Source: Alphaproteobacteria bacterium | GTDB lineage: Bacteria > Pseudomonadota > Alphaproteobacteria > SHVV01 | DNA: 64,000 nt | NCBI GenBank assembly: GCA_965261735.1 | Contig: OZ253470.1 | Coordinates: forward strand, 1,952,001-2,016,000 | Direction of reading: 5' to 3' | Part shown: in pieces, positions 10,804 to 63,613 of the stretch | Layout: every line of letters starts with the position of its first letter | How positions within the stretch are numbered: the first letter of the stretch is position 1 | The notes under the pieces: model-generated | The model's input: the letters and a program-made list of their open reading frames with translations, nothing else | Told to the model about the DNA's origin: nothing | Database searches by the model: none | Translations under genes and position numbers: made by a program

Positions 10804-10912
10804 CTTGCATATCCGGTTAACGCCCATGACCGCTACATGTAGGGTGCCGCCACTCTCCCGAGTAAAGCTCGGCATAGGTTGGAGCAGAGGTGTCGCCCGC
10901 GATGCCGAGCAA
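10804..10912 (-). mobile_element. IS1595 end fragment, near-identical to 38466-38574
   Basis: CTTGCATATCCGGTTAACGCCCATG...GATGCCGAGCAA. Confidence 0.85.
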
Positions 10913-11717
10913 GCTCGCGGATATGGCGCCAGTCCATGCAGATGTAATGGATGGCGCCGTCGCGGCTGTGCGTGCACAGGTGCTGCAGGACGGTTTCGAG
11001 GAAGTTTGAGAATTCGGCCTCGGACATCTCGCCCGATGCCATGGCGAACTCCTTGTGTCGCACACGCCCAAGTCCGCAGACATTGCCGTCGATCGGGACG
11101 TTGTAGGGTGGGTCCGTGAACACCATTTGGGCCAATTCGCCGTCGAGCAGCGTCTCGAAGGAACCCGGGTCCCTTGCATCCCCACACAGGAGCCGATGCT
11201 TGCCGAGTTGCCAGAGATCACCCGGGACGGTGATCGGTGGTGCGTCGGCGTCGATCTCCGGGACCCGGTCCGCATCGTCGTCGGGCTCGGTGGGACCGAG
11301 GACAAGGCCGTCGATCTCTGCCGTGTTGAAACCGATGACCTCGATATCGAAGTCGAGGTCGATCTCGCAGAGCGCCTTCAGCTCTATCGACAACAGTTCC
11401 TCATCCCAACCGGCCAGCTCGGCCAGGCGGTTATCGGCGATGACGTACGCCTGAACCTGTGCTTGGGTGAGGTCGCTCAGCCGGATTGCTGGGATCTCTT
11501 CGAACCCAAGCAGCTTCGCCGCTGCCAGACGCCCGTGGCCCGCGACGACCTGCCGGTCTTCATCGATCAGGATGGGGTTCGTCCAGCCGAATGTCTCGAT
11601 GGACGCAGCAATCTGCCGGATCTGCTTTTTCGTATGCGTACGGGCATTTCGCGCATACGGCTTGAGGGTCGAGATCCCGAGATGCTCAACCTTGAGATCC
11701 CGAACGCGCTCAGACAT
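10913..11717 (-). pseudogene. ParB-like domain fused to N6/N4 DNA methyltransferase, 3'-truncated by the IS1595 fragment
   Basis: NARTH, FGWTNPILID, VAGHGRL and YVIADNRLAE (ParB). LWQLGKHRLLCGD and VFTDPPYN (MTase motif IV). Confidence 0.85.
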
Positions 11718-11723
11718 CGGACG

Positions 11724-11848
11724 AGCTTTGTCAAGTTGACCGGATTCACTCCGAAATATCTGTAAATTGTCGATGGCTTCTCTACGCAATTTCAATGGCT
11801 TGGCCTCATGGAGAAATGCCGAAAACAGCCTACAATCAGTTAACTTGA
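11724..11848. mobile_element. IS6-derived MITE copy with right IR split by an IS1111 insertion (IR completed by CAATGCC at 13203-13209)
   Basis: Homologous to 7978-8109. Left IR is GCTTTGTCAAGTTGACCGG. Confidence 0.7.
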
Positions 11849-11927
11849 TGGTATGGACGCCCCCTACGGCTTCACGATGAGCCATACTGGAGTGTGTTGA
11901 ACAACCCAGACAGAGGGAGCGTCCACG

Positions 11928-12947
11928 ATGGATATTACGACAATTGGGTTTGATCTGGCAAAGACGGTGTTCCAGGTTCACGGTGCTGATGGTGAGGGAC
12001 GACCGGTACTACGGCGGAAGCTGCGCCGCGGGAAGGTGCTGGCGTTCTTCGCCGGATTGCCATCCTGTCTTGTCGGTATGGAAGCCTGTGCCTCTGCGCA
12101 CTATTGGGCTCGGGAACTGCAAGCACACGGGCACAAAGTTCAGCTGATTCCGCCTCAATACGTTCGTCCCTTCGTCAAAACGAATAAGAACGACGCAGCG
12201 GATGCGGAAGCGATCTGTGAGGCAGTGACGCGTCCGACGATGCGCTTTGCACCGGCGAAAAGCGCCGAGCAGCAGTCGGTTCTGATGCTGCACCGGGCCC
12301 GAGAGCTGTTGGTCCGTCAACGCACGATGGTGATCAATGCGCTTCGCGGCCACTGTGCGGAGCTCGGACTGATCGTCGCTCAAGGGGCGTCGAAGGTGGA
12401 GGAACTGGTTGCCATCATCGAAGATCCCGGCGATGTGCGACTGCCGCCTCTGGCACGCGAGGCGCTTGGCTCTCTGGTTGAGCAGCTCCGTTCTGCTCAG
12501 GCCCGGATCAAGCAGCTGGAAGTGACGCTTTTGGCATGGCACCGCTCCAACGAGGCGAGCCGCCGTCTTGCGACGATCCCCGGCGTCGGTGTCATCACCG
12601 CGACGGCGCTGGTCGCGACGATCGGCGATGGCGCACAGTTCCGCTCGGGCCGACAGCTTTCGGCCTGGCTCGGTCTCGTGCCCCGGCAGCACTCGAGTGG
12701 CGGCAAGGATAGACTGGGACGGATATCGAAGCGCGGGGATGGCTATATCAGGCGCTTGCTCGTGCATGGTGCGCGAACCGTGCTGCGCTGGCGCCGCGCC
12801 AAGCCGGGCACGGGGCCTGGCTGGACCGACCGGCTCCTGGCGCGGCGGCCGACAAACGTGGTGCTGGTCGCCATGGCCAATAAGGCAGCCCGTGTCGCCT
12901 GGGCACTGCTCAGGTACGAGCGTATCTACCGACCGACGCCGGCATAG
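11928..12947 (+). CDS. IS110-family recombinase/transposase
   Basis: IGFDLAKTVFQ, MEAC and KNDAADAEAI (DEDD), plus LGLVPRQHSSGGK. Confidence 0.95.
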   Translation: MDITTIGFDLAKTVFQVHGADGEGRPVLRRKLRRGKVLAFFAGLPSCLVGMEACASAHYWARELQAHGHKVQLIPPQYVRPFVKTNKNDAADAEAICEAVTRPTMRFAPAKSAEQQSVLMLHRARELLVRQRTMVINALRGHCAELGLIVAQGASKVEELVAIIEDPGDVRLPPLAREALGSLVEQLRSAQARIKQLEVTLLAWHRSNEASRRLATIPGVGVITATALVATIGDGAQFRSGRQLSAWLGLVPRQHSSGGKDRLGRISKRGDGYIRRLLVHGARTVLRWRRAKPGTGPGWTDRLLARRPTNVVLVAMANKAARVAWALLRYERIYRPTPA

Positions 12948-12989
12948 CCAGCTGGCAAACCGGGATCAAATTGCGAGGGTGACGACGAT

Positions 12990-13150
12990 TTGATGGCGAA
13001 ACAGGGTTCCACCCGAGATCGGCCAAACCCGAGGCATTGTCCGAGCATCAAGCTCGTTAGTCTGACTGGGCGTCGATCTTTCGGATTCCATCAGGGCCAG
13101 CGGTCAGCGTACCGCAGCGAAAAGGCCGGATACATGACTGCAAGCTCTAC
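12990..13150 (+). ncRNA. Predicted seekRNA/bridge RNA in the IS1111 3' non-coding region (copies at about 17530-17690 and 35765-35920, minus strand)
   Basis: GGCATTGTC and GTTAGTCTGAC flank a GAGC/GCTC stem and match the target flanks. CCATCA and ATACATGA match the element's own ends. Boundaries are inferred. Confidence 0.75.
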
Positions 13151-13209
13151 CGCCGATTCAAATCAGTTTTCCCCTTGCAACACCGGGGGCGTCCATACAT
13201 GACAATGCC

Positions 13210-13520
13210 CGCAGCTGTTCGCTGGTCATATTAGTGAGCTTGATCGTGGGAACATGATCCATGCCGAGCATCTTTGCAGCTTCGTGCCGGCCGTGACCCG
13301 CAACGACACGATTTTCTTCATCAATAAGAATTGGATTCGTCCAACCGAAAGTCTTTACGGATTCAATAATTTGACGAATTTGTTTTGTTGAGTGCGTGCG
13401 CCCATTTTTTTGAGTGCGCACGTCGAGATCTGATACAGGCCGGACCTCGACGTTCAGGTCGCAAATCCGAGAATGTCCAGGAGGAGTTGCCGGCTTGGGC
13501 AACGAAAGGTTCCTTGCCAT
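13210..13520 (-). pseudogene. ParB-like (ParB-MTase) N-terminal fragment, truncated at an IS6-type IR tip
   Basis: RTHSTKQIRQI, FGWTNPILIDE, VAGHGRHEAA, EQLRA. Confidence 0.8.
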
Positions 13521-13608
13521 TTCTTGGCTTCCAAGATTAGTTTTTGAAGGCGCAAGGATTCCAAAAAAATCCAAGTGAAAAAATTCGTCTACAAAATTTT
13601 GGACAGGT

Positions 13609-17478: not shown

Positions 17479-18835
17479 TCATGTATGGACGCCCCCGGTG
17501 TTGCAAGGGGAAAACTGATTTGAATCGGCGGTAGAGCTTGCAGTCATGTATCCGGCCTTTTCGCTGCGGTACGCTGACCGCTGGCCCTGATGGAATCCGA
17601 AAGATCGACGCCCAGTCAGACTAACGAGCTTGATGCTCGGACAATGCCTCGGGTTTGGCCGATCTCGGGTGGAACCCTGTTTCGCCATCAAATCGTCGTC
17701 ACCCTCGCAATTTGATCCCGGTTTGCCAGCTGGCTATGCCGGCGTCGGTCGGTAGATACGCTCGTACCTGAGCAGTGCCCAGGCGACACGGGCTGCCTTA
17801 TTGGCCATGGCGACCAGCACCACGTTTGTCGGCCGCCGCGCCAGGAGCCGGTCGGTCCAGCCAGGCCCCGTGCCCGGCTTGGCGCGGCGCCAGCGCAGCA
17901 CGGTTCGCGCACCATGCACGAGCAAGCGCCTGATATAGCCATCCCCGCGCTTCGATATCCGTCCCAGTCTATCCTTGCCGCCACTCGAGTGCTGCCGGGG
18001 CACGAGACCGAGCCAGGCCGAAAGCTGTCGGCCCGAGCGGAACTGTGCGCCATCGCCGATCGTCGCGACCAGCGCCGTCGCGGTGATGACACCGACGCCG
18101 GGGATCGTCGCAAGACGGCGGCTCGCCTCGTTGGAGCGGTGCCATGCCAAAAGCGTCACTTCCAGCTGCTTGATCCGGGCCTGAGCAGAACGGAGCTGCT
18201 CAACCAGAGAGCCAAGCGCCTCGCGTGCCAGAGGCGGCAGTCGCACATCGCCGGGATCTTCGATAATGGCAACCAGTTCCTCCACCTTCGACGCCCCCTG
18301 AGCGACGATCAGTCCGAACTCCGCACAGTGGCCGCGAAGCGCATTGATCACCATCGTGCGTTGACGGACCAACAGCTCTCGGGCCCGGTGCAGCATCAGA
18401 ACCGACTGCTGCTCGGCGCTTTTCGCCGGTGCAAAGCGCATCGTCGGACGCGTCACTGCCTCACAGATCGCTTCCGCATCCGCTGCGTCGTTCTTATTCG
18501 TTTTGACGAAGGGACGAACGTATTGAGGCGAAATCAGCTGAACTTTGTGCCCGTGTGCTTGCAGTTCCCGAGCCCAATAGTGCGCAGAGGCACAGGCTTC
18601 CATACCGACAAGACAGGATGGCAATCCGGCGAAGAACGCCAGCACCTTCCCGCGGCGCAGCTTCCGCCGTAGTACCGGTCGTCCCTCACCATCAGCACCG
18701 TGAACCTGGAACACCGTCTTTGCCAGATCAAACCCAATTGTCGTAATATCCATCGTGGACGCTCCCTCTGTCTGGGTTGTTCAACACACTCCAGTATGGC
18801 TCATCGTGAAGCCGTAGGGGGCGTCCATACCATCA
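17479..18835 (-). mobile_element. IS1111 complete copy 2, near-identical to copy 1 and inverted
   Basis: Same ends and the same 1357 bp length as copy 1. Confidence 0.95.
17734..18753 (-). CDS. IS110-family recombinase/transposase
   Basis: 339 aa, differing from 11928..12947 at P to S and L to F. Confidence 0.95.
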   Translation of the reverse strand: MDITTIGFDLAKTVFQVHGADGEGRPVLRRKLRRGKVLAFFAGLPSCLVGMEACASAHYWARELQAHGHKVQLISPQYVRPFVKTNKNDAADAEAICEAVTRPTMRFAPAKSAEQQSVLMLHRARELLVRQRTMVINALRGHCAEFGLIVAQGASKVEELVAIIEDPGDVRLPPLAREALGSLVEQLRSAQARIKQLEVTLLAWHRSNEASRRLATIPGVGVITATALVATIGDGAQFRSGRQLSAWLGLVPRQHSSGGKDRLGRISKRGDGYIRRLLVHGARTVLRWRRAKPGTGPGWTDRLLARRPTNVVLVAMANKAARVAWALLRYERIYRPTPA

Positions 18836-25585: not shown

Positions 25586-26195
25586 GTGCGCCAGGCTAAC
25601 TGGTGCCAGTGCAGCCGGTGAGAGTCCGGCAGGAAGGAGAAGGCAAGCCACCACTTCCACCCCGAGTCATGGGCCGTCATTCGCGAGGATGGGGGTTAAG
25701 CGTTGACAGGGGCGCGTGTGGGCGGGGCTATTGAGCACCGAAATAGACCATGTTCGGGATGCCGAAGCTGACCAATGGGCTGAAGGCAACATCTGACCCA
25801 CCGATATGGCGAGGGGGGCCAGAATCCCGCGGTGTCTAAGAATCCAGGCACGCACGTACGCACTGCACCGGGACCTGGGAGGTCTCCATGCCATCCCGCT
25901 GCCGTGGCGGGATCGCAGAGGAAAGGAGTAATCCACAACCGATGATGAACGGCATGGAGAAGTCAGACTCGGTAATAGTAGCTGTGAAGTCGGTGAACAA
26001 AGGGACGCCCGTCCCGGCGGAGCCGATGGAGCCAAGGACCGAGCCCAAGGGGAATCCGAAAAGCCAAAGCATGCGCCGGACACAGGACCGGGAAAGCGTG
26101 TCACAGGCGGCCGATCGGATACGGCAGTTTGTACAACGGGAACCAGGGATGCGTCTCACGGCGCTTCTCCACCATATCACGGTCGACGCGCTGCG
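25586..26195 (+). mobile_element. Group II intron 5' fragment with the start of its RT ORF (25942..~26195)
   Basis: 5' GTGCG, AAGCGTTGACAGGGG and GCTATTGAGC motifs, MNGMEKSDSVIVA...LTALLHHITVDALR. RT core and domain V are absent. Confidence 0.8.
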
Positions 26196-35710: not shown

Positions 35711-37068
35711 TCATGTATGGACGCCCCCGGTGTTGCAAGGGAGAAACTGACTTAAAACGGCGGTAGAGCTTGCAGTCATGTATCCGGCCTTTGCGCTGCG
35801 GTACGCTGACCGCTGGCCCTGATGGAATCCGAAAGATCGACGCCCAGTCAGATTAACGAGCTCAAAGCTCTGACAATGCCTCGGGTTTGGCCGATCTCGG
35901 GTGGAGCCCTGTTTCGCCATCAAATCGTCGTTACCCTCGCAAGTTTGTATCCGCTTTCCAGCTGGTCAGGCGGGCGACGGTCGGTAGATACGCTCGTATC
36001 TGAGCAGTGCCCAGGCGACGCGGGCTGTCTTATTGGCCATGGCGACCAGCACGACGTTTGTCGGCCGCCGCGCCAGGAGCCGGTCGGTCCAGCCAGGCCC
36101 CGTGCCCGGCTTGGCGCGGCGCCAGCGCAGCACGCTTCGCGCACCATGCACGAGCAAGCGCCTGATATAGCCATCCCCGCGCTTCGAGATCCGCCCCAGC
36201 CTGTCCTTGCCGCCACTCGAGTGTTGTCGGGGCACGAGACCGAGCCAGGCCGAGAGCTGCCGGCCCGAGCGAAACTGCGCGCCATCTCCGATCGTCGCGA
36301 CCAGCGCCGTCGCGGTGATGACACCGACGCCGGGGATCGTCGCAAGCCGGCGGCTCGCCTCGTTGGAGCGGTGCCAAGCCAAAAGCGTCGCCTCCAGCTG
36401 CTTGATCCGGGCCTGAGCGGAATGGAGCTGCTCAACCAGAGAGCCAAGCGCCTCGCGTGCCAGAGGGGGCAGTCGCACATCACCGGGATCTTCGATGATG
36501 GCAACCAGTTCCTCCACCTTCGACGCCCCTTGAGCGACGATCAGTCCGAGCTCCGCACAGTGGCCGCGAAGCGCATTGATCACCATCGTGCGTTGACGGA
36601 CCAACAGCTCACGGGCCCGGTGCAGCATCAAAACCGATTGCTGCTCGGCGCTTTTCGCCGGCGCAAAGCGCATCGTCGGACGCGTCACCGCCTCGCAGAT
36701 CGCTTCCGCATCCGCCGCGTCGTTCTTGTTCGTCTTGACGAAGGGGCGAACGTATTGAGGCGGGATCAGCCGGACCTCATGGCCCAGCGCTTGTATCTCA
36801 CGCGCCCAGTAGTGCGCACTGGCGCAGGCTTCCATGCCGACAAGACATGATGGCAATCCGGCGAAGAACGCCAACACCTTCCCGCGGCGCAGCTTCCGCC
36901 GTAGTACCGCTCGCCCCTCACCATCAGCACCGTGAACCTGGAACACCGTCTTTGCCAGATCAAAACCGATTGTTGTAATATCCATCGTGGACGCTCCCTC
37001 TGTCTGGAGTTCAAACCAAACTCCATTCTGGCGCACTCGACGCCGAAAAGGGGGCGCCCATACCATCA
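35711..37068 (-). mobile_element. IS1111 complete copy 3 (variant), CDS 35966..36985
   Basis: Same end architecture, with a variant left end and non-coding region. Confidence 0.95.
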
Positions 37069-37250
37069 GAGTAAATGGGCTTGAGCTAAAAAGTAAGATC
37101 TCGTAGCCTCCGGCGATGCACAATCCTTTCCGTTATTTCAACAGTTCGCCTGTGGCAATCCGCAGCGCGGTGATGCTGTATGTCCGTTACCCCTTGTCGC
37201 AGAGCCGTGCGGTACTGGTAGATTCTTCAGTTCCGACCCAGTTAGTCTGA
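37066..37250 (+). mobile_element. Internally deleted IS6 element, both IRs interrupted by IS1111 copies 3 and 4
   Basis: MHNPFRYFNSSPVAIRSAVMLYVRYPLS (37116..) lies between TCAGAGTAAATGGG and CCCAGTTAGTCTGA. Confidence 0.8.
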
Positions 37251-63247: not shown

Positions 63248-63455
63248 AGCCCCCTCTGTCGTCGGACCTGAAAGATTGACCCGCTGGCGCTCGCGCGCCC
63301 TCGGGCTTGCCCCTTCGGTGAGGCGCGCCGCCAACGGCCTCGCGCCTGCTTTCCAGAGTGCCATCCCCTTGCGGTCCCGGTGCCTGAGAGTTTCCGGGGC
63401 GGTTGCTCCTTCGGCGCCGGCGCAGCGCGAGCAGCCCGCCGGTCTCTCCCGCAAA
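63248..63455 (-). promoter_or_regulatory. Tandem glycine riboswitch
   Basis: Minus strand GGGAGAGA...CGCCGAAGGAGCAA...AAACTCTCAGG and CTCTGGAAAG...CACCGAAGGGGCAA...AATCTTTCAGG upstream of gcvT. Confidence 0.9.
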
Positions 63456-63613
63456 GATCAACTGTATGGTCGGCCGCGCTCATGCACCCGATGACGGCAT
63501 GATAGTGGACCGCCCCGGCGAGTCAACTGAGCCTCACGTCGCAGCACGGCAGCATTGACGCCACGGTATCGACGTTTCACTGTCGCGTCCGTGGCCAGTA
63601 CGCGAGGCGGACG

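Follow-up and report, generated by a model that had tools for sequence, protein, structure and literature searches.

Insertion sequences of the IS1111 group are directed by guide RNAs, termed seekRNAs, which are encoded in the 3' non-coding region of the element and carry a match to the top strand of the target 5' of an overlapping match to its bottom strand, as described in PMC11187229. For 93% of IS1111 elements, a bridge RNA has likewise been predicted in the right end (PMC11208160), and the four guides of such an RNA, namely the left and right target guides (LTG and RTG) and the left and right donor guides (LDG and RDG), are used here as defined by Durrant et al. in that report. The IS1111 group is distinguished from the IS110 group by subterminal repeats, a long downstream non-coding region and a C-terminal motif (PMC11187229, PMC11208160), the latter being stated as GL-P----S(T)G in PMC11187229. 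Here we analyze a stretch of 64,000 nucleotides (nt) from an Alphaproteobacteria bacterium (GenBank assembly GCA_965261735.1, contig OZ253470.1, positions 1,952,001 to 2,016,000; hereafter the window, in whose coordinates all positions are given unless assigned to the genome contig), which holds three full copies and one truncated copy of an IS1111-type element, and we conclude that positions 13015-13140 very probably represent the core of a bridge RNA (seekRNA) located in the 3' non-coding region of this element, on the transposase strand. Given that the IS1111 layout and the logic of the four guides have already been published, the element adds a new example of a known mechanism.

The copy that contains this region, referred to as copy 1, is delimited by the following features:

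11846-13202, plus strand: IS1111-group insertion sequence, copy 1, 1357 base pairs (bp) when counted with TGA at both ends
11928-12947, plus strand: transposase gene, 339 amino acids
11853-11864, plus strand: left subterminal inverted repeat ATGGACGCCCCC, 12 bp, 7 nt from the left end including TGA, with its partner at 13185-13196
13185-13196, plus strand: right subterminal inverted repeat GGGGGCGTCCAT, 12 bp, 3 nt from the right end without TGA, followed by ACA and then TGA

One of the two end TGA triplets of copy 1 is the target's own. The transposase scores above the cut-offs of both PF01548 (DEDD; 52.3 bits) and PF02371 (98.5 bits) and reaches 348.8 bits against the NCBIfam model NF033542, 'IS110 family RNA-guided transposase' (cut-off 140), and its translation contains GLVPRQHSSG, that is, the IS1111 C-terminal motif. 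The non-coding region downstream of the gene spans 255 nt (12948-13202) as compared with 82 nt upstream of it (11846-11927), and the end layout TGA-TGxxx-TGGAYG ... CRTCCA-xxxA is conserved in 56 elements. Copy 1 therefore combines the attributes by which an IS1111 element is recognized: a DEDD domain together with PF02371 in a transposase whose 339 amino acids fall within the usual length of about 330-350, subterminal repeats whose 12 bp lie in the range of 7-17 bp and which carry short terminal extensions, a longer 3' non-coding region, the C-terminal motif and site-specific insertion free of duplication.

Two segments of the downstream region correspond to the target:

13033-13041, plus strand: RTG, GGCAUUGUC (as DNA, GGCATTGTC), predicted to pair with the top strand GA-CAATGCC
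13056-13066, plus strand: LTG, (G)UUAGUC-UGA-C (as DNA, GTTAGTCTGAC), predicted to pair with the bottom strand

The LTG has the same sense as the left flank followed by TGA and the first base of the right flank, and its first base, G13056, may alternatively pair with C13042 and thereby lengthen an adjoining hairpin. Among 2000 dinucleotide-preserving shuffles of the non-coding sequence (237 nt), none produced a same-sense match of 11 nt to the 17-nt target, 7 produced a reverse-complement match of 9 nt and none produced both, so that the target matches stand far above chance even in a single sequence.

We collected 80 related loci (56-99% protein identity) and analyzed 63 of them, the 17 near-identical or partial loci that were omitted all being among the 32 loci of a separate survey of left-flank variants; both ends were located in 55 of the 63, which together with copy 1 yielded 42 distinct non-coding regions that were aligned with MAFFT. 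Two loci with mis-assigned or rearranged left ends (L048 and L050) were kept in the guide-target and donor tests, and one with a left flank cut short (L077) was excluded from the test of the donor guides and of the closing helix P1 considered below. In relatives that reside at other sites, the homologue of 13033-13041 reads as the reverse complement of the right flank of the relative concerned, and that of 13056-13066 consists of that relative's left flank, the triplet and the first bases of its right flank. Because the alignment places two clades 1-2 columns out of register, guides and sites were compared by a register-free longest exact match, with 50 distinct own combinations set against 1830 pairings with unrelated targets. 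The mean longest match of the RTG strand was 7.40 nt to its own target versus 3.69 nt to unrelated ones, and that of the LTG strand 6.32 nt versus 3.80 nt; matches of at least 8 nt were found in 25 of the 50 own combinations versus 4 of the 1830 crossed ones for the RTG, and in 15 versus 2 for the LTG. The LTG strand of the relatives spans the uninterrupted target (over 12 nt in L049 and L055, for instance), and since it thereby crosses the insertion point it matches the empty target and not the occupied junction. The guide strands change together with the flanks of each relative, a pattern that reads as natural retargeting and of which four loci serve as illustration:

L049, guide strands (5' and 3'): GTGCTGTC and TTAGACTGACAG
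L067, guide strands (5' and 3'): AAACCGTC and TTCGGTGA
L086, guide strands (5' and 3'): ATAACGTACAG and GACTCTG
L100, guide strands (5' and 3'): ATAATTCAAG and AGTCTTGA

The insertion sites of the element itself point in the same direction. Besides copy 1, the window holds:

17479-18835, minus strand: copy 2, with guides identical to those of copy 1, at the site TTTACTC-TGA / CAATGCC
35711-37068, minus strand: copy 3, a 92.5%-identical variant with LTG GUUAAUCUGAC, RTG GGCAUUGUCA and an altered hairpin loop
37248-37660, plus strand: copy 4, truncated, only the left part (element positions 1-412)

The RTG of copy 3 is a 10-nt version with a final A. CAATGCC follows the right-hand TGA in all three full copies, and GTTAGTCTGA stands at 37241-37250, immediately 5' of the truncated left end of copy 4, whose left flank, GTTAGTC-TGA, agrees with the LTG at every position. 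Copies 3 and 4 lie head to head with 179 bp between them (37069-37247), and unrelated sequence follows beyond about 37660. An uninterrupted paralogous site reads GTTAACT-TGA-CAATGCC and shares 129 nt of left-flank homology with copy 1, ending at the TGA; the presence of a single TGA there implies that insertion proceeds without target duplication and that one TGA is the target's. Contigs from public RNA libraries that contain the left flank of copy 1 continue from 11848 into CAATGCC or CAAAGCC. As regards the surroundings, copy 1 is flanked by open reading frames at 10833-11981 and 13158-13574, both on the minus strand and with a common N-terminal stretch (…TFGWTNPILIDE…), and the context of the uninterrupted paralogous site, at 338858 of the genome contig, resembles these flanking frames.

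The 5.03-megabase genome carries 6 uninterrupted full-length copies and 8 partial or interrupted ones, and a genome-wide survey of junctions retrieved 12 left and 9 genuine right junctions. The right heptamers were CAATGCC in five cases, CAACGCC in two and CAGTGCC and CAATGTC in one each; similarity ends after these 7 nt, with unrelated sequence beyond, and two of the single changes in the right half would be wobble pairs. The left heptamers comprised GTTAGTC (three), GTTGGTC, GTTCGTC, GTTTGTC and GTTAACT (one each), TTTACTC (two), and ACATTCC, ACATTTC and ACCAGCC (one each), so that mismatches to the guide range from none of seven in GTTAGTC to 5-6 in ACATTTC and ACATTCC; two of the three mismatches in the left flank of copy 1, GTTAACT, would be G-T/U-G wobbles in an RNA-DNA duplex. 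A one-base variant of the LTG, GUUAAUC, is found in copy 3; left flanks with TTAATC occur at 5 of the 14 sites of the same variant in another genome, and the source genome has A at the variant position in 1 of its 12 left flanks.

A small repeat of 65-106 nt has its end at four of the 12 left flanks; it includes a conserved 18-mer that terminates in CCGACCCAGTTAGTCTGA, and its end coincides exactly with a perfect left target half:

Genome contig, near 418229, 434732, 1989233 (window 37233), 4286664, 4339593 and 4454896: copies of the short repeat

Allowing up to 3 mismatches, five of these six copies carry the element, and the sole empty copy continues with CAACGGC; the longer similarity of 65-106 nt is limited to three of the six and to the site at 3802231. 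The flank CCAGTTAGTC also occurs at insertion sites in other genomes (L014, L033, L042, L045 and L073). That the repeat ending in CCGACCCAGTTAGTCTGA might be the end of a gene was considered and rejected, as many stops interrupt the frames that end at TGA and the similarity extends over only 65-106 nt.

These results largely bear out what a preliminary description, made from the letters of the window alone, had proposed for the target half of the RNA. The motifs GGCATTGTC, GAGC/ATCAA/GCTC, GTTAGTCTGAC, CCATCA, ATACATGA and GTTAGTCTGA all lie where it placed them, its reading of 13033-13041 and 13056-13066 as a target loop agrees with the shuffles and with the flanks of the relatives, and the target that it predicted, GTTAGTC-TGA-CAATGCC, has a close counterpart in the uninterrupted paralogue. 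Its notion of a strict right and a lenient left half holds only loosely, the left being indeed the more lenient, though 4 of the 9 right flanks carry one mismatch; its figure of two tolerated mismatches in the left half is too low, in view of the three of copy 1 and the 5-6 of other left flanks.

The same description had suggested folding the region. The RNAalifold consensus of the 42 regions assigns the following structures to copy 1:

13014-13083, plus strand: target-binding arm, with basal stems 13014-13015/13082-13083, 13017-13023/13072-13078 and 13028-13030/13068-13070
13043-13055, plus strand: capping hairpin GAGC/ATCAA/GCTC, with stem 13043-13046/13052-13055
13095-13127, plus strand: hairpin P3 between the donor strands, with stems 13095-13098/13124-13127 and 13100-13104/13111-13115

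The internal loop that separates the basal stem from the GAGC hairpin has precisely the two target segments as its strands. The consensus leaves 98.3% of the cells paired, versus 28-40.5% when the partners are slid by 1-3 columns, and 14 pairs show compensatory changes, with a covariation score that none of 500 shuffles reached. The stems covary: compensatory pairs account for 5 of 7 in helix 3 (13017-13023/13072-13078), 2 of 3 in helix 4 (13028-13030/13068-13070) and 3 of 4 in the capping hairpin, and within P3 helix 6 is paired in 99.4% of the cells and helix 7 in 98.5%, the latter with two compensatory pairs. G-U pairs occur on the transposase-sense strand (11 at alignment columns 57/121, for example) and would be C-A on the opposite strand, which favors the transposase-sense strand as the one that folds. 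Folding of single sequences gave z-scores of -2.6 and -2.2 and recovered the target arm, with the LDG region paired internally.

For the donor half, the relevant strands are:

13130-13138, plus strand: LDG, AUACAUGA(C), of the same sense as the right end ATACA+TGA and predicted to pair with the bottom strand
13088-13093, plus strand: candidate RDG, CCAUCA, complement of the left end TGATGG, or else the 3' strand of helix P0
12991-12996, plus strand: upstream strand UGAUGG, 5' side of helix P0, with the letters of the left end and a predicted pairing with 13088-13093 (RNAalifold)
13003-13008 with 13143-13148, plus strand: closing helix P1, at an unchanged position in the RNAduplex predictions for all 42 sequences

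The DNA of the LDG, ATACATGA at 13130-13137, corresponds to the last repeat base, the 4-nt extension and the triplet of the element's own right end, and among 41 elements this identity is complete (8/8) in 35 and 7/8 in the other 6. It is maintained across seven variants (ATACATGA, ATAGATGA, AGATATGA, ATACATGC, ACACATGG, ACATATGA and ACACATGA), which cover the extensions TACA, TAGA, CACA, GATA and CATA and the triplets TGA, TGG and TGC. An 8-nt match of ATACATGA to the end junction arose in 61 of 2000 shuffles and is hence marginal in a single sequence; the comparison among relatives nonetheless lends good support to 13130-13137 as a putative left donor guide. The base after its core (13138) is as a rule identical with the one that opens the right flank (C in the majority of elements, CG in L106, A in L102), which indicates that at 13138 the strand matches the occupied right junction and not the joint of a circle, in a manner that may be comparable to the handshake guides of IS621 (PMC13626964). 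In one clade (L078, L079, L082, L087, L089, L091-L095, L097, L104 and L109) the left junction has TGA and the right one TGG; the LDG and RTG carry the TGG form there and the LTG mostly UGA, a split between guides that suggests that perhaps only two core bases need to be shared, and the shared core may accordingly be no longer than two bases.

The clade offset barred P1 from being written on the alignment, and it was tested per sequence instead, with a mean duplex energy of -9.05 kcal/mol for own partners versus -5.59 across clades and -6.06 for shuffled ones; in copy 1 it is weak (-5.2 kcal/mol, with two wobbles). The module enclosed by P1 would measure about 146 nt (13003-13148) and is modeled as a three-way junction in which the CCAUCA and AUACAUGA strands meet the target arm and the hairpin. 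P0, in turn, is paired in 98.8% of the cells and has two compensatory pairs (GC 25 / AU 16 and GC 19 / CG 16 / AU 3), and since it crosses P1 both cannot form as simple nested helices. The candidate RDG pairs with the left end by 6/6 Watson-Crick pairs in 18 of the 41 elements and by 5 pairs and one wobble in another 18. In elements whose upstream strand is not identical to their left end, the segment mostly follows its RNA partner, as it does in sixteen relatives with GCAUUA and in L076, L086 and L107, and it follows the left end in L106 and L102. CCAUCA might thus be a guide, a structural strand or both, and the donor half as judged from these comparisons is only partly secured. The donor loop of the preliminary description survives in its ATACATGA strand, which tracks the right end, but not with the same force in CCATCA, which helix P0 explains equally well; its 'second loop', moreover, is a junction closed by a further helix and not a simple internal loop. 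A more elaborate architecture, in which the target arm sits inside the donor-binding junction of a nested three-way junction and CCAUCA is masked by an 'anti-guide' (12991-12996) that copies the left end until trimming of P1 or binding of the enzyme unmasks it, is a speculative proposal that we regard as doubtful. Both the nested junction and the masked strand may go beyond the published accounts, although the supplements of PMC11187229 and PMC11208160 could already show them; if true, a masked guide would tie donor recognition to the processing of the RNA, and together with the nested architecture it could bear on how donor recognition is controlled.

As to its transcription, the right end carries one half of a possible promoter:

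13175-13180, plus strand: TTGCAA, likely -35 box of a junction promoter

Only the joining of the right end to the left would create the -10 box, CATGAT, at a spacing of 17 nt, and judged by these letters such a promoter is plausible; all 42 non-coding regions retain CTTG without change, and junction promoters are known for ISEc11 (PMC11187229) and IS621 (PMC12288879). Metatranscriptome contigs from four runs of one study cover the element, including 12977-13205, and in three of the four runs the contig depth of 12994-13201 exceeds that of the gene, a quantity that cannot rank parts of a gene. The contigs of these four runs contained no joined form or circle junction, which does not amount to showing its absence.

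A number of observations weigh against the bridge-RNA interpretation, or at least against some of its parts, and are best considered together. The relatives share kinship, so that counts of sequences overstate the number of independent events. On 12997-13150, the minimum free energy fold has -55.9 kcal/mol versus -31.7 kcal/mol for the consensus fold and, being 24 kcal/mol more stable, pairs the LDG region internally, for which reason single-sequence folding cannot settle the donor part. No bridge-RNA family was found in Rfam 15, either in the whole window at the gathering threshold or in a permissive scan of 11800-13260, whose only matches in the element were two at chance level (E 4.5 and 5.2). 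The RNA evidence consists of assembled contigs of a single study, which can show neither strand, ends nor level, nor transcription as such. Any 6-nt reverse-complement match to the end junction arises in 1139 of 2000 shuffles, and CCATCA alone is accordingly not above chance; moreover, P0 accounts for the changes of CCAUCA among relatives no less well than the left end does, and 16 relatives have GCAUUA, a perfect partner of their own UAAUGC and a wobble-only partner of the left end TGATGC. Finally, some real insertion sites match the LTG poorly (ACATTCC, ACATTTC and ACCAGCC), from which it follows that pairing of the left half is no absolute requirement.

The doubts surrounding CCAUCA give room to an alternative whereby the working RNA is the target arm alone (about 70-82 nt), the 'donor guides' are no guides, CCAUCA is purely structural as part of P0, and the ends are recognized via the donor-flanking target halves together with protein contacts with the subterminal repeats. 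Besides the almost complete pairing of CCAUCA with its upstream strand and its lack of significance on its own, this alternative can invoke ISEc11, for which a short seekRNA of 82 nt alone gave transposition (42%), better than the 154-nt form. Loops complementary to the donor were nevertheless present in the three IS1111-group elements inspected in that respect (PMC11208160). P1 encloses both donor strands, and it is hard to explain without pairing why AUACAUGA tracks the right end across all seven variants; taken as a whole, we consider it improbable that the target arm suffices.

A second alternative concerns the nature of the guiding molecule. In the IS200/IS605 family, the target is recognized through pairing with guide sequences of DNA located near the ends, and complementarity and stem covariation cannot by themselves tell an RNA from a folded single DNA strand, so that the segments described here might in principle act as single-stranded DNA of the element. 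The enzyme is, however, a DEDD transposase of the IS110 family and not an HUH one, and the non-coding RNA of four IS1111 members co-purified with the transposase, was RNase sensitive and was active in trans from a separate plasmid (PMC11187229), all of which renders a DNA guide very unlikely. That the matches are due to chance, or that the region codes for the 70-amino-acid open reading frame at 12990-13202 that overlaps it, can be practically dismissed on account of the joint target matches being absent from all shuffles, the many gaps of 1-2 columns among relatives, and stems whose changes are compensatory and do not follow a codon pattern.

A bridge RNA on the transposase strand hence remains the reading that we favor, and its motifs, its conserved fold, the co-variation of its guides with flanks and ends, and insertion free of duplication are supported directly. 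Binding of the RNA by the enzyme, formation of a circle and strand exchange at the core are inferred by analogy with the work on ISEc11, ISPa11, ISKpn4 and IS621. By this analogy, transcription by read-through or from the junction promoter would yield an RNA that contains the module, and the DEDD transposase would bind it; the target loop would pair with both strands of a site such as GTTAGTC-TGA-CAATGCC, with both guides covering the TGA core, while the donor strands would pair with the circular element where its ends are joined, and strand exchange would occur at the shared triplet without target duplication. The published picture of IS1111 guide RNAs is left unchanged by these findings; what they offer is a fully worked in-silico example in which the non-coding RNA of an uncharacterized IS1111 element reveals the target of that element, and a natural series of retargeted relatives, with 56-99% transposase identity, that may be of use in annotation and in the choice of new scaffolds for bridge recombinases.

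The genome holds further mobile sequences that deserve mention. At 2942630-2944364 of the genome contig, element positions 977-1357 recur directly after a full copy of the element, with …CATACATGG/ACCGACC at the joint; this tandem may have arisen by insertion into, or by rearrangement with, another copy. A second IS1111-like family, of about 51% protein identity and with the right end GGGGGCGTCCACACACG (e.g., at 374978-376257), has at least 16 right-end matches in the genome, in which at least two additional families of 48-50% identity are also present. Within the window, group II intron domains D1-D4 (RF02005, 175.4 bits) at 25621-25844 on the plus strand mark another mobile element, and tandem glycine riboswitch aptamers (RF00504, 72.4 and 35.9 bits) lie at 63252-63461 on the minus strand.

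Comparison with described systems places the element close to several of them. IS4321 and IS5075 are, as Partridge and Hall reportedly set out in 2003, site-specific IS1111 members that target the terminal repeats of the Tn21 family. With them the present element shares short terminal extensions beyond its subterminal repeats, as well as insertion in a single orientation into a repeated sequence; unlike in those elements, the repeated sequence is here a small 65-106-nt repeat, at whose end the four left flanks mentioned above are found. A further likeness is to the seekRNAs of ISEc11, ISPa11, ISKpn4 and ISPst6 (Siddiquee et al. 2024, PMC11187229), for which an RNA downstream of the transposase gene, subterminal repeats and the lack of duplication are likewise described. 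As in ISEc11-type seekRNAs, two short and overlapping matches to the top and bottom strands meet at the insertion point, the top-strand one being 5', and the ISEc11 transposase also has 339 amino acids, with a long RNA reported at 154 nt (PMC13604230) compared with the P1-closed module of about 146 nt here. The present element, known from its sequence, differs from these systems in its target, GTTAGTC-TGA-CAATGCC; furthermore, where the account given in PMC11187229 stresses target matches only, here the right-end match of the LDG covaries too. To the bridge RNA of IS621 and other IS110-family elements (Durrant et al. 2024, PMC11208160; Hiraizumi et al. 2024, PMC11208158), it is linked by four guide segments, the RDG being a candidate, with a hairpin within each guide pair, by left guides that pair with bottom strands and right guides that pair with top strands, by the inclusion of the core in each pairing and by an expected junction promoter. 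For IS621, however, the RNA comes from the left end, on the upstream side of the gene, and has a CT core and two internal loops in series, whereas here it comes from the right end, the order of the guides is reversed, the core is a TGA triplet with two bases or more common to both junctions, and the target arm, as far as the comparative fold suggests, appears nested inside the junction of the donor strands.

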